Shown here one piece after another: positions 1 through 3,835 of a stretch of DNA of 64,000 nt. Location: the sequence record PZ229304.1; one strand, 5' to 3'. Source of the stretch: a phage. Both the position numbers and the translations under genes were made by a program. The number at the start of each line of letters is the position of its first letter. Within the stretch, counting starts at the first letter, position 1. The notes under the pieces are model-generated. The model searched no databases and was not told the origin of the DNA. It was given only the letters and a program-made list of their open reading frames with translations.

Positions 1-2085
1 GTGGCAAGGAAACCTGTCAAACAATCTTTTGAAAATGTAGATATTGAAGTTAAAGCCCAACCTGGCAAACAAACACTAGCTATGGATCTTATGCCTGAAG
101 TAATGATTTATGGTGGTGCGGCAGGTTGTGTTTCAGCAGAAACAGAATACCTAACAAGAGACGGTTGGAAACAAATAAGTGAATATGATGGTGAGGATAT
201 TTATCAATACAATCCAAGAAATAAACGTCTTGAATTAGTTACACCATCTTTTGTAGAATATGATGCTAAAGATAATTTGTATTGTATCACAAACGGAGTA
301 GGTGTCTTCCAAGAATTAAGTATGGAACATCGCTTTGTTTTCTACAAGAAGAAAAAATCCAAAAAACATTTTGAAATTCTTGTTGGGGATCTTATTGCAC
401 TACAGCAAGCAGGACACCCATTACGAGGATATATTGAAAATCCTTTTGGTAAGCGTGTTCCGTTTAACATTCAAGGTAAACCTAGCACATACCTAAAAAT
501 TCATGAGGTAATGACAAGTGATGATAAGAAATATTGCTTTGAAACTCCAAGCAGTTATGTCGTGTTTAGACGTGGCGATCACATCTTCGTTACTGGGAAT
601 AGCGGCAAAAGCCGTCTGCTACTTCTAAAGGCACTTAAATACGCATATAAAGATCCACTGTTTGGTGGTATTCTTTTCCGTAAAAATACAACAGCTTTAC
701 GTAAATCTGGTGGTTTGTTTACTGAAGCTAAAAAACTTTATCTACCATTAAAGCCTCACGTAAGAGAACAGGCTATGGAGATGGAGTTCAGAGCCACAAA
801 AGGTGGTACACTTAAATTTGACCATCTTGAAAATGATAACGTAACTGCTGAAACTAACCATCAAGGTACACAATATTCGATGGTGGGGTTTGACGAACTT
901 ACACATTTTACACAATATGAAATGCTATATCTGTTAGGGCGTATGCGTTCTGAATCAGAAACGTCTTTTATGCTGTGTACTTGTAACCCTGATGCGGATA
1001 GTTGGGTGTTAAAGTGGGTACTTCCTTATTTGGATGAAGCTGGTTATCCACGAGAAGATATGTGTGGCAAACAGCTATACTTTCTTATTGTACAAGATGA
1101 ACCAGTATTTGCTGAAACAGCAGAAGAGTTGAAAGAAAAGTATCCTGAAAACTGTTTTATGCAAAACCCGAACACAGGTGAAACAGTGGTTATTGAACCA
1201 CAAACATTTGTGTTCATTGGTGGTACTATCTTTGATAACCCTGAACTAATAAGACTTAACCCTAAATACTTAGCTTCTTTGAAGGCTCAAACCGCCGTTA
1301 AGAGAGCACAGCTTTTAGATGGTTGTTGGTTTGCTCGTGCACAAGAAGAGAGTTTCTTTAACAGAGAATGGTTACACGTTATCAAGTTTAAAGATTTACC
1401 AAACAATCTTAAATATATGCGAGCGTGGGATAAAGCAGTATCTGTTCCAACAGAATCTTATCGTTATCCTGACTACACAACATCTGTTAAAATGGCTAAA
1501 GACTCTGATGGAAATTATTACATTTTTGGTGATTATGATTATGATGCTCACGATGAAGGTAGTAAAATTTTTGGTAGATTTAGAAGACTACCAGGTGACA
1601 GAGATAATTTAATTCTAAACCAATGTAAGATTGATGGAGATGAAGTTACAGTTGTATTGCCAAAAGATCCTTCTGGTGCTGGTTTGATTGAATATACAGA
1701 ATCAGCTAAAAAACTAATTGCTGAAGGGTTTGTTGTTAAACCAGATGCTATGCCTGGTAACAAGAAAAAATTACAACGCTTTATGCCATTTAGTAGTGCT
1801 TGTCAAAATGGTTTTGTTTATATTGTAGAAGAATCTTTCCCTAACAAAGAAACTCTTGATCATTTCTATAAAGAGATGGAGTCATTTAATGGAGAAAGAT
1901 CTACGGCAACATTAAAAGATGATATTCCAGATGCTGCTGCATCTTGCTTTAATACTTTGTCAAAAGAACAGATGTTTAAAGCAGTAGCAATACCTTCTGC
2001 AACAAATGCATTAACAGGGTACGGTAAGATGGGTGGAAGATCAAGAAACTCTTTATCTTCTCCATATAGTATCAGAGGAAGATAA
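1..2085 (+). CDS. terminase large subunit (ATPase + nuclease), interrupted by an in-frame mini-intein; 5' end may lie at or beyond the window edge
   Basis: 694-aa ORF beginning at position 1 with GTG. Walker A is split as IYGGAAG / SGKS around a 158-aa insert. Walker B-like MVGFDE follows. Gene sits directly upstream of the portal gene. Confidence 0.8.
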   Translation: MARKPVKQSFENVDIEVKAQPGKQTLAMDLMPEVMIYGGAAGCVSAETEYLTRDGWKQISEYDGEDIYQYNPRNKRLELVTPSFVEYDAKDNLYCITNGVGVFQELSMEHRFVFYKKKKSKKHFEILVGDLIALQQAGHPLRGYIENPFGKRVPFNIQGKPSTYLKIHEVMTSDDKKYCFETPSSYVVFRRGDHIFVTGNSGKSRLLLLKALKYAYKDPLFGGILFRKNTTALRKSGGLFTEAKKLYLPLKPHVREQAMEMEFRATKGGTLKFDHLENDNVTAETNHQGTQYSMVGFDELTHFTQYEMLYLLGRMRSESETSFMLCTCNPDADSWVLKWVLPYLDEAGYPREDMCGKQLYFLIVQDEPVFAETAEELKEKYPENCFMQNPNTGETVVIEPQTFVFIGGTIFDNPELIRLNPKYLASLKAQTAVKRAQLLDGCWFARAQEESFFNREWLHVIKFKDLPNNLKYMRAWDKAVSVPTESYRYPDYTTSVKMAKDSDGNYYIFGDYDYDAHDEGSKIFGRFRRLPGDRDNLILNQCKIDGDEVTVVLPKDPSGAGLIEYTESAKKLIAEGFVVKPDAMPGNKKKLQRFMPFSSACQNGFVYIVEESFPNKETLDHFYKEMESFNGERSTATLKDDIPDAAASCFNTLSKEQMFKAVAIPSATNALTGYGKMGGRSRNSLSSPYSIRGR
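127..600 (+). mobile_element. mini-intein (Hint domain, no homing-endonuclease domain) inserted in the terminase P-loop
   Basis: Insert starts CVSAETEYLTRDGW (intein block A, close to the DnaE-intein start CLSYETEILT). Internal SMEHRF resembles block B (TxxH). Insert ends ...DHIFVTGN followed by Ser as +1 residue. Removing codons 43-200 restores a canonical GGAAGSGKS Walker A. Confidence 0.7.
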
Positions 2086-2182: not shown

Positions 2183-3751
2183 GTGTCTACAGGTAAGCGT
2201 AAGTACACTAAAAGATCGGATTACTGGAACAAAGGCTCAACTGAAAAAGCTGCACTGTCTCCAACACAAAGTGCAACTAAAGAGAAGAACTTGGTACTTT
2301 CACCAGAAATAGGTACTATTGGTCTTAATTCGATTAAAGCCTTTACGAACTTCATGCAACCGTATGAAACTCGCTTCCCAGAAAACATCCGAACATACAA
2401 AGAAATGGGTGAAGACCCTGACGTAGCTACTGCTCTTGATGCTACGTACATCTTTGTAGATAGAGCATTCTTTGATTTTAAAATAAAATACAATGTTAGT
2501 TCAGCTAAGTCAAGACGTGCTGCAAAGTTTGTAGACTACACACTTCGCAACATGAATGCACCACTAAGACAGTATGTACGCTCCTTGCTAACATATAAGC
2601 AATTTGGGTTTGCATTTGCAGAGAAGGTGTATGAACTTGATGAAGATCCAAAAAGCCCGTATTTTGGTTATTACCGTCTTGTTAAATTGGCGTTTAGACC
2701 CCAGGATACAATTGATTTGGCACAACCTTTCACTTATTCTGATGACGGTCGCACTATTCTTACGGTAAACCAAAACATTACTAATGGAATGGTAAGCCCT
2801 GGTACTAACGCAAATCTAATAGGAAGAAAAGAAATTCCTATGGAGAAAGTTATTTACGTAGGGAGCAACATTACAGAGAATAATCCATTAGGTGTAAGTC
2901 CACTTCTTGCAGTATATAGAAGTTGGCGTGAAAAATCTCTGATTCAAGAATACGAAGTTGTTGGTGTTTCGAAAGACTTAGGCGGTATGCCAGTGTTGAT
3001 GGTTCCAAGTGATATTCTCAACAGGGCATCACTAAACCCAAGCGGGGATGAAGCACAATCTTTACGTGTTCTACAAGCAAATATCGCTAACTTACACGCA
3101 GGTGAACAATCTTATATGGTGTTACCTTCTGATGTTTACGAAGGTACTGTTATGCGCCAATATGATCTTGTATTCCAAGGTGTTGAGGGTAGTGGTAAGC
3201 AATTCGATACACAGGCTCTAATAAAACAACGTAAATTAGATATCTACAACAGATTTGGTGCAGGTGTTCTGATTATGGGTGATGGAGAAGGTGGTAGTTA
3301 TTCTTTGTCAGATAACAAACAAACTCTTCTTTCACATTTTATTGAGCGTGATGTAGATATTATTACAGAAGCACTAAATACTCAAGTAATTCCCCAACTT
3401 CTACGTTTGAATGGTATTTTCTTATCTCAAGAAGATATGCCTAAATTTGTTAGTGATGATATCGGTGATCCTGATATTGAAGTTAATGCTAAGGCAATCC
3501 AACAAATCGTAGCTGCTGGTGCAATACCATTAACGCCAGAAGTAATTAATGAATTCTTCGAACGTTTAGGTTTCAATTATAGAATACCTGATGATATTGT
3601 TGCTGATCCAGATAAGTTCCAAGAATTCCTTGAGACTTTTATGCCAGATAAGACTTCAAGATCTGGTGATGGTTTAGCGGCTGGTGCTGGTAATGGAACG
3701 TCAACATCTCCTGCTGCATTAGATACATCGGCAGCAAATTTGGCAAATTAA
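2183..3751 (+). CDS. portal protein
   Basis: 522-aa ORF directly after terminase; GTG start with GGAGG 7 nt upstream; size and position typical of portal. Confidence 0.55.
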   Translation: MSTGKRKYTKRSDYWNKGSTEKAALSPTQSATKEKNLVLSPEIGTIGLNSIKAFTNFMQPYETRFPENIRTYKEMGEDPDVATALDATYIFVDRAFFDFKIKYNVSSAKSRRAAKFVDYTLRNMNAPLRQYVRSLLTYKQFGFAFAEKVYELDEDPKSPYFGYYRLVKLAFRPQDTIDLAQPFTYSDDGRTILTVNQNITNGMVSPGTNANLIGRKEIPMEKVIYVGSNITENNPLGVSPLLAVYRSWREKSLIQEYEVVGVSKDLGGMPVLMVPSDILNRASLNPSGDEAQSLRVLQANIANLHAGEQSYMVLPSDVYEGTVMRQYDLVFQGVEGSGKQFDTQALIKQRKLDIYNRFGAGVLIMGDGEGGSYSLSDNKQTLLSHFIERDVDIITEALNTQVIPQLLRLNGIFLSQEDMPKFVSDDIGDPDIEVNAKAIQQIVAAGAIPLTPEVINEFFERLGFNYRIPDDIVADPDKFQEFLETFMPDKTSRSGDGLAAGAGNGTSTSPAALDTSAANLAN

Positions 3752-3835
3752 AAATATTTTTAAAAATTTTTTAATTTAGGTATTGACAAATAAGCAAATA
3801 TCCTGTAGACTAAGATTTATGGGATATTTGTTTTT

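Follow-up and report, generated by a model that had tools for sequence, protein, structure and literature searches.

A putative endonuclease-free mini-intein in the Walker A loop of the large terminase of phi92-like phages

A phage DNA stretch of 64,000 nucleotides (sequence record PZ229304.1; the whole stretch is called the window here) begins with a gene for a large terminase (TerL) whose Walker A loop (P-loop) is split by 158 additional codons. This locus raises the question of what the insert is, and how a terminase interrupted at this point could mature. P-loops are a classic niche of inteins, and a preliminary description of the sequence had proposed a mini-intein at nt 127-600. Our sequence comparisons and structural models suggested that the insert is very probably a functional mini-intein without an endonuclease, active in the Walker A loop and required for the maturation of the terminase.

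The open reading frame (ORF) spans nt 1..2085 of the plus strand including the stop codon, starts with GTG at nt 1, and encodes a precursor of 694 aa (79.2 kDa) that is 100% identical to gp119 of phage phi92; the window matched Justusliebigvirus genomes. The protein matched PHROG 979 (E=3e-221), and its in-silico spliced form matched the Pfam families Terminase_6N (PF03237, E=8e-19) and Terminase_6C (PF17289, E=4e-4; 20.7 bits, just below the Pfam gathering cut-off of 22.6 bits), both outside the insert. The architecture, an N-terminal P-loop ATPase followed by a C-terminal RNaseH-like nuclease, fits a Terminase_6 (T4-like) large terminase. The identity of the gene given in the preliminary description thus stood, and nt 1..2085 is assigned as the gene for the phage's only large terminase.

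Codon 43 (nt 127-129, TGT) encodes Cys and opens the insert, which starts with CVSAETEYLTRDGW, and codons 198-200 (nt 592-600, ACT GGG AAT) encode the closing Thr-Gly-Asn, followed by Ser at codon 201 (nt 601-603, AGC). The insert at nt 127-600 occupies exactly 158 codons (43-200), in frame, between G42 and S201 of TerL, as had been described. The upstream N-extein (aa 1-42; nt 1..126, plus strand) ends with the first half of the Walker A motif, G39-A-A-G42 (nt 115-126), and homologues read GG[AS]AG before the insert. The C-extein (aa 201-694; nt 601..2082, plus strand) starts with the second half, S-G-K-S (nt 601-612), and continues with the remainder of the ATPase domain and then the RNaseH-like nuclease domain (Pfam Terminase_6N at 201-458 and Terminase_6C at 554-646). 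In-silico removal of the insert produced ...MIYGGAAGSGKSRLLL, in which G39-A-A-G-S-G-K-S204 fits the Walker A pattern GxxxxGK[ST]; the earlier claim that conceptual excision restores the P-loop by joining IYGGAAG/SGKSRLL (a slash marks an insertion point here and below) was borne out. Removal also allowed the Terminase_6N match to begin at profile position 1 instead of 8, with the E value changing from 1e-16 to 8e-19.

TerL homologues were taken from a search of 5.8 billion proteins. The intein-free homologues, ~510 residues in length and up to 63% identical, read GG[AS]AGSGK[ST] unbroken, and the loop GG[AGS]AG[SA]GK[ST] was uninterrupted in every examined intein-free TerL with an intact N-terminus. 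The insert is a presence/absence polymorphism, with the contiguous motif in at least 59 intein-free TerLs versus GGAAG/C...N/SGKS in the insert-bearing alleles. Inserts of 146, 158/159, 246, 301 or 323-328 residues were found at exactly the same point in other homologues, the 146-residue insert in the Vibrio phage PWH3a-P1 group and those of 158-159 residues in the phi92/phAPEC8 group. All the TerL inserts at this G/S site have Cys first and [T/S]-Gly-Asn last, and are followed by SGKS. As the boundaries are exact and the homologues without the insert keep a contiguous loop, a conserved native segment of the terminase, the alternative named in the preliminary description, was ruled out, and the alignment placed the insertion point between G and S.

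The insert (nt 127..600, plus strand; 158 aa, 18.4 kDa) was assigned to the Hint fold by structural modelling, Foldseek and family profiles. An AlphaFold2 model built on an alignment of TerL mini-inserts reached a predicted local distance difference test (pLDDT) of 89.7 and a predicted template-modelling (TM) score (pTM) of 0.80. When this model was compared with the PDB by Foldseek, the top 50 matches were all inteins, bacterial intein-like (BIL) domains or Hedgehog domains, and the best one was the AceL NrdHF-1-1 intein (PDB 6ZGQ, TM 0.68-0.70). The same intein was reached by sequence: a profile from 25 TerL mini-inserts matched 6ZGQ among the PDB sequences at E=4.3e-11 in the N-terminal half. 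A 35-residue profile of the C-terminal part of the family found nothing meaningful among the PDB sequences, and the C-terminal relation to 6ZGQ is therefore based on the fold match and the published residues. In a six-frame search of the 64-kb window, hidden Markov models (HMMs) built from family copies outside TerL matched nt 127-600 with E=1.4e-24 for the N-half and E=2.9e-17 for the C-half, and no second copy of the family was detected; a match by chance is excluded. Together with the absence of the insert from homologues with exact boundaries, these results sustained the intein reading of the preliminary description.

The wider family was collected by a phmmer search of 1.84 billion cluster representatives (cut-off E<=1e-3), of which 734 matched; a word-index homologue search with the insert alone had returned only 5 fragments. 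Residue counts were made on 158 copies located in the best 149 proteins of the 734. Most of the copies are 300-350 residues long, and 12 have 139-173 residues. The hosts scanned with Pfam were RecD-like, ResIII/DEAD and Snf2-type helicases, AAA ATPases and a primase-helicase, with the ATPase profile resuming just after the insert; ribonucleotide reductase (RNR) hosts were also found, and PHROG 32482 (PhoH-like) contains the element too. The main site of the family is G/[S/C/T]GK[S/T]: Gly occupies -1 in 133 of the 158 copies, and +1 is invariably Ser (71), Cys (47) or Thr (40). The best match outside terminases was a mini-intein of 159 residues that interrupts the P-loop of a RecD-like helicase (41% identity over its full length).

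The splicing motifs could be located along the window intein (all on the plus strand) and compared with these copies. Block A (N1; nt 127..168) reads C1-VSAETEYLTRDG-W14 and provides Cys1 (nt 127-129), the presumed first nucleophile; Cys1 and Trp14 are each present in 157/158 copies, Thr6 in 154/158 and Glu7 in 158/158. Block B (N3; nt 301..342) contains the class 1 motif S/T-x-x-H as Ser65-Met-Glu-His68, the His being encoded at nt 328-330, followed by Arg69 at B:11 (nt 331-333) and Phe70 at B:12. Ser or Thr at 65 was counted in 153/158 copies, His68 in 157/158 and Arg69 in 101/158, and B:12 is mostly Val, Met, Ile or Phe, Trp not being among the six commonest residues. Block F (C2; nt 526..573), K-K-Y-C137-F..., places Cys137 (nt 535-537) at F:4, and has no His at F:13; Tyr136, Cys137 and the near-invariant Arg148 each occur in 157/158 copies. 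This cysteine, which lies at the position of the class 3 nucleophile, had been overlooked in the preliminary description. Block G (C1; nt 580..603) reads H-I-F-V-T156-G157-N158 before Ser+1 (nt 601-603), with Thr or Ser at G:5, Gly at G:6 and Asn at G:7 in all 158 copies. The penultimate Gly157 in place of the usual His, pointed out earlier, is indeed present, but it is not an oddity of one copy, as it is universal in the family sample and shared with the active AceL NrdHF intein.

In the interval from block B to block F, the central segment (intein aa 73-125; nt 343..501, plus strand) consists of short strands and one helix, where relatives have a LAGLIDADG endonuclease of ~170 residues. The 327-residue TerL insert of the homologue P0028 was modelled as a Hint domain with a two-motif LAGLIDADG domain (pLDDT 93), and its top matches were the TliVMA intein, PI-SceI, PI-PfuI and I-DmoI. 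Three large inserts scanned with Pfam yielded no more than a LAGLIDADG_3 match below the threshold (E=0.012), and the assignment was settled by structure; the other 323-328-residue relatives at the same site share the LAGLIDADG motifs of P0028. When the mini and large forms were aligned, the endonuclease fell into the B-F interval, which is 53 residues long in the phi92 form. The window intein is accordingly modelled as a mini-intein with no endonuclease domain in this interval, in line with the earlier statement. The segment starts with a Lys-rich stretch, YKKKKSKKH (window 343-372, intein aa 73-82), just after block B. It is nearly invariant in the 158/159-residue clade, being kept even in members that are 67% identical overall, with a single Lys-to-Arg change in P0021. 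The 146-residue and large forms lack this stretch, which may contact nucleic acid or be what is left of an endonuclease linker.

In a neighbour-joining tree of the exteins, the large inteins (301-328 residues) appeared singly, next to intein-free sisters, and this sporadic distribution of the endonuclease-bearing forms is the pattern expected of homing. The exteins of P0116 and P0089 are 98.3% identical over 172 residues, and those of P0028 and P0064 are 85.6% identical. The 158/159-residue form made up one clade of 17 representatives including the window, and its sister group, P0024-26, is intein-free. Among isolate genomes, the insert was full-length in 134 records, that is, in all the full-length matches, essentially all of them from Justusliebigvirus (intein identity 99-100%) or Phapecoctavirus (86-87%), and its carriers are viable lytic phages. 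The comparison of the window with phAPEC8 gave a ratio of nonsynonymous to synonymous substitution (dN/dS) of 0.053 for the intein (88% aa identity) and 0.071 for the extein (86.8%), at saturated synonymous sites (dS ~1.6). The intein is under purifying selection, which fits a mini-intein that would be unable to home and would survive by splicing from an essential protein. The phi92 form looks like an endonuclease-less derivative of a LAGLIDADG homing intein of the same family; the derivative would have become fixed and vertically inherited in Stephanstirmvirinae.

Two DNA-level readings of this region were dismissed. A group I intron or another DNA-level insertion at nt 127-600 was ruled out, as the insert is in frame, conserved at the protein level (dN/dS 0.05) and without an Rfam match. 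A synonymous dip in the last 30 intein codons (pS 0.32) was dropped, since a sliding window showed only a modest bump, with third-position identity of 0.70 against 0.4-0.67 elsewhere. Across the 64-kb window, no Rfam family was detected at the gathering threshold and no tRNA gene by ARAGORN.

The AceL NrdHF intein, the best match in both profile and fold comparisons, resembles the window intein in size (146 vs 158 aa), in Ser B:7, His B:10, Arg B:11, a hydrophobic non-Trp residue at B:12, Cys F:4, Thr-Gly-Asn and Ser+1, in the absence of both usual histidines, and in its association with phages. Its motif residues are S65, H68, R69, M70, C124 (F:4), T144, G145 and N146, without the histidines of F:13 and G:6, and it splices with a half-time of ~4 min (Hoffmann et al. 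2020, PMC7891396). In this intein, the C-scissile carbonyl is in contact with Arg69 (B:11), splicing is slower with R69A, and G145H abolishes the activity (PMC7891396). The two inteins differ in the first residue. AceL NrdHF, for which class 3 splicing is proven, has Ala1 and relies on Cys F:4 as its first nucleophile; Cys1 is retained in the window intein and in ~99% of its family. AceL NrdHF is also split into two genes and resides in the RNR beta subunit, in contrast to the contiguous window intein, with Trp14, in the Walker A loop of TerL, and their C-terminal halves have diverged too far to give a sequence match. Splicing without the penultimate His has been described for other inteins (Chen, Benner & Perler 2000; Ceu ClpP, Wang & Liu 1997; cited in PMC4031507), a precedent showing that the His of G:6 is not obligatory and that its absence can be compensated by other residues. 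Those His-less inteins, Ceu ClpP included, belong to lineages unrelated to the window intein. Ceu ClpP, which also has Gly at the penultimate position, reportedly spliced poorly in E. coli until this residue was changed to His, the opposite of the effect in the AceL NrdHF lineage, where the Gly-to-His change abolishes activity.

From these features we infer that splicing occurs and would proceed as follows. The 79-kDa TerL precursor would be unable to form the P-loop. After folding of the Hint domain, splicing would most likely start with an N-S acyl shift at Cys1 (Cys43 of TerL), with Ser65 and His68 of block B straining the scissile bond. The N-extein would be transferred to Ser+1 (Ser201), possibly via Cys137 at F:4 or aided by it, and cyclisation of Asn158 would free the 18.4-kDa intein. 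An O-N shift would then create the native G42-S201 bond in a 60.8-kDa terminase with an intact GAAGSGKS loop, for which the expected ligated junction peptide is QTLAMDLMPEVMIYGGAAGSGK. As the penultimate His and the block F His are both absent, Asn cyclisation is probably aided by Arg69 (B:11), as in AceL NrdHF, and perhaps by Arg148.

As to which cysteine acts first, a class 1-type start at Cys1 seems most likely, because Cys1 is conserved like the catalytic residues, the S/T-x-x-H motif is kept, and class 3 inteins, by definition, have no position-1 nucleophile. Class 1 inteins carry a coordinating Asp at F:4, and class 3 inteins have their nucleophile there (PMC4031507, PMC6195587). Since the cysteine occupying this position is practically invariant, the conservation pattern suggests that it must be essential, be it as a nucleophile in a relay or as an aid to catalysis.

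Several points weigh against this interpretation. The search with intein HMMs recommended in the preliminary description failed: the Pfam and NCBIfam/TIGRFAM intein models (Intein_splicing/Hint/Hom_end_hint; TIGR01443/01445) gave no match at E<=1, and the identification had to rely on family profiles and on comparison of folds. A PDB search with the insert as a single sequence did not match an intein either, and a weak similarity to a WW domain that it returned was dismissed as chance. The failure of the curated models is regarded as a gap in sensitivity, since the family profile reaches a solved intein at E=4e-11. Both residues that usually help Asn cyclisation, His G:6 and His F:13, are missing from the window intein. 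The class 1 order of steps is not secure either, as F:4 is Cys and not the Asp usual in class 1, and the closest solved relative, AceL NrdHF, uses the class 3 route.

The class 3 route, in which Cys137 would attack the G42-C43 bond and form the first branched thioester while Cys1 would be dispensable or auxiliary, is accordingly the competitor with the most in its favour, although we consider it rather unlikely. AceL NrdHF, proven to be class 3, shares Cys F:4, Thr G:5, Gly G:6, Asn and S65/H68/R69; Cys F:4 occurs in 157/158 family copies; two copies with Lys at position 1, P0228 (RNR beta) and P0176 (PolA-like), retain Cys F:4 and TGN; and three inteins that have N-terminal Ser or Cys together with the class 3 triplet Trp-Cys-Thr (WCT; B:12, F:4 and G:5) were listed by Tori et al. 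2010 (PMC2807308). On the other hand, Cys1 is as frequent as Cys F:4 (157/158 each) across very different hosts, which would be unexpected for a dispensable residue, and class 3 is defined by the absence of a position-1 nucleophile, Ala or Pro having been reported there (PMC7891396, PMC2807308). The window intein departs from this definition at position 1, where Cys1 is present, and agrees with the WCT motif at two of three positions (B:12/F:4/G:5 = Phe70/Cys137/Thr156). Block B of the family retains the class 1 S/T-x-x-H motif, with Phe, Val, Met or Ile and not Trp at B:12; the validated class 3 AceL NrdHF itself carries Met-Cys-Thr in place of WCT (PMC7891396). A more far-reaching reading, to which we give a low probability, is that the family keeping Cys1, Cys F:4 and Thr-Gly-Asn uses a two-thioester relay (Cys1 to Cys137 to Ser+1), or represents a class 1 stock ancestral to class 3 inteins of the AceL NrdHF type. 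If the latter were true, this type of class 3 intein would have arisen by loss of Cys1, independently of the classical WCT lineage. Having two cysteines in the active site could also render terminase maturation redox-sensitive.

Readings without ligation are much less probable. A domesticated Hint insertion that is never removed, with the neighbouring N and C termini of the Hint domain bringing the two P-loop halves into contact, might be seen in an insert that evolves as slowly as the terminase, and in its fixation across the whole subfamily. This reading is very improbable, because it leaves unexplained both the near-invariance of residues needed only for splicing (Cys1, His68, Asn158 and the +1 nucleophile) in 158 copies in unrelated proteins and the function of a terminase with a broken Walker A loop. 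We know of no functional case of a Walker A loop broken three residues before the Lys, and the close intein-free homologues function with a contiguous loop. A cleavage-only autoprocessing domain of the BIL or Hedgehog kind, cutting TerL without ligation, would be consistent with the BIL and Hedgehog structures among the fold matches (6Y75, 2LWY, 1AT0), and is the least probable of all. It would leave a 42-residue peptide and a TerL without the P-loop glycines; a +1 Ser, Cys or Thr and the C-terminal Asn are always present in the family; and inteins outscored BIL domains in both sequence and fold comparisons. The features of BIL domains were also lacking in the window intein, which is followed by Ser+1 and sits in the Walker A motif of an essential enzyme, a strictly conserved catalytic motif and not a variable region. 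An excised mini-intein, with a probable start at Cys1, is therefore retained as the preferred reading.

Two groups of known inteins are comparable in location. The classical class 3 (WCT) inteins, such as MP-Be DnaB and Msm DnaBi1 (PDB 6BS8), share Cys F:4 and Thr G:5 with the window intein, prefer the P-loops of helicases and terminases, and have a proposed phage origin. In contrast, 6BS8 came only 49th among the fold matches (E=5.6e-3), and no sequence match to it was obtained with the family profile, indicating that, by these comparisons, the classical WCT inteins are not close relatives of the family. The mycobacteriophage inteins TerL1-a and TerL1-b also lie in the Walker A motif of a phage large terminase (Kelley et al. 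2016, PMC5050341). Representative mycobacteriophage TerL inteins, TerL1-b included, splice, and splicing has been argued to be necessary for the active site and the pentamer; the TerL6 intein lies in the C-motif and not in the P-loop (PMC5050341). These terminases are of the Terminase_1 type, as opposed to the Terminase_6-like enzyme of the window, and the insertion points differ: TerL1-a lies between Lys and Thr and TerL1-b one residue away, whereas the window site is Gly/Ser, three residues before the Lys.

Inteins in the ATPase domains of terminases, including the P-loop, are thus well documented in mycobacteriophages (PMC5050341). What is new here is limited but real, namely an unannotated intein, a family missed by the standard domain models, and a dual-Cys, His-less site between the class 1 and class 3 definitions. 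No intein annotation was present in GenBank, UniProt, IMG or the other source names examined for TerL. No intein was found reported for phi92, phAPEC8 or Stephanstirmvirinae in the open-access literature, a scope outside which the original 2012 phi92 paper falls, so that an earlier mention may exist. A recent paper stated that no inteins had been reported in coliphages (PMC11162368).

Phages of the phi92-like and phAPEC8-like groups are isolated in many places, have been the subject of structural studies and serve in phage-therapy work, and their only packaging ATPase is apparently dependent on splicing. As a small intein native to E. coli phages, with Gly at -1, Ser at +1 and no penultimate His, the window intein is a candidate tool for protein engineering and a convenient cis-splicing model for the subtype with Cys1, Cys F:4 and TGN, on which little work exists. 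Since the Pfam and NCBIfam models miss the family, intein censuses that use these models undercount it. The unrecognised 158-residue insert and a sporadic group I intron in TerL also distort alignments and gene calls.

TerL is a standard marker of phage phylogeny and taxonomy, and in close relatives the same gene carries an insertion of ~976 bp at a point corresponding to window nt ~1223-1231, absent from the window allele. The carriers are UAB_1, vB_vPM_PD114 and the records labelled Campylobacter phage A150, A145, C3 and A110a, and TerL is annotated as two or three separate genes in such records. In Salmonella phage UAB_1 (2224-3199), the insertion contains an HNH homing-endonuclease ORF and a match to the group I intron family RF00028 (45.8 bits, E=1.4e-9; the gathering score, 50, was narrowly missed). 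Five records, MG065639, MG065645, MG065656, MG065689 and MG065650, were deposited as Campylobacter jejuni phages. Their proteins are 99.9% (TerL) or 87% (intein) identical to those of phi92-like/phAPEC8-like coliphages, and the host labels of these records look doubtful.

In Escherichia phage vB_EcoM_TH18 (Vequintavirinae; 2411-3757), TerL contains an intein of the same family, ~330 residues in length, at the same P-loop site and with LAGLIDADG motifs, reading IIGGAAG/CLSKDHEVLTPSGW...LRLQVAVMADG...KYCF...VVTGN/SGKS. The gene is annotated only as terminase large subunit and is further split downstream, beside an HNH endonuclease ORF.

The two Lys1 copies of the family were found in unusual contexts. 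In P0228 (775 aa, RNR beta), the copy at residues 100-319 (FME/KMSGDTE...VITGN/CVHAKS) follows the Glu of the iron-ligand motif ExxH, a type of site that it shares with the split AceL NrdHF intein, and is probably a contiguous relative of this class 3 intein; a word-index search with it gave no matches. Residues 419-651 of P0228 form a further intein, which has Cys1. In P0176 (529 aa, a PolA-like fragment), two family inteins (residues 53-370 and 371-509) stand back to back at one site (DLH/.../TINAKKLG), the first starting with Lys1 and having as its +1 residue the Cys1 of the second, and this tandem arrangement would require ordered, sequential splicing.

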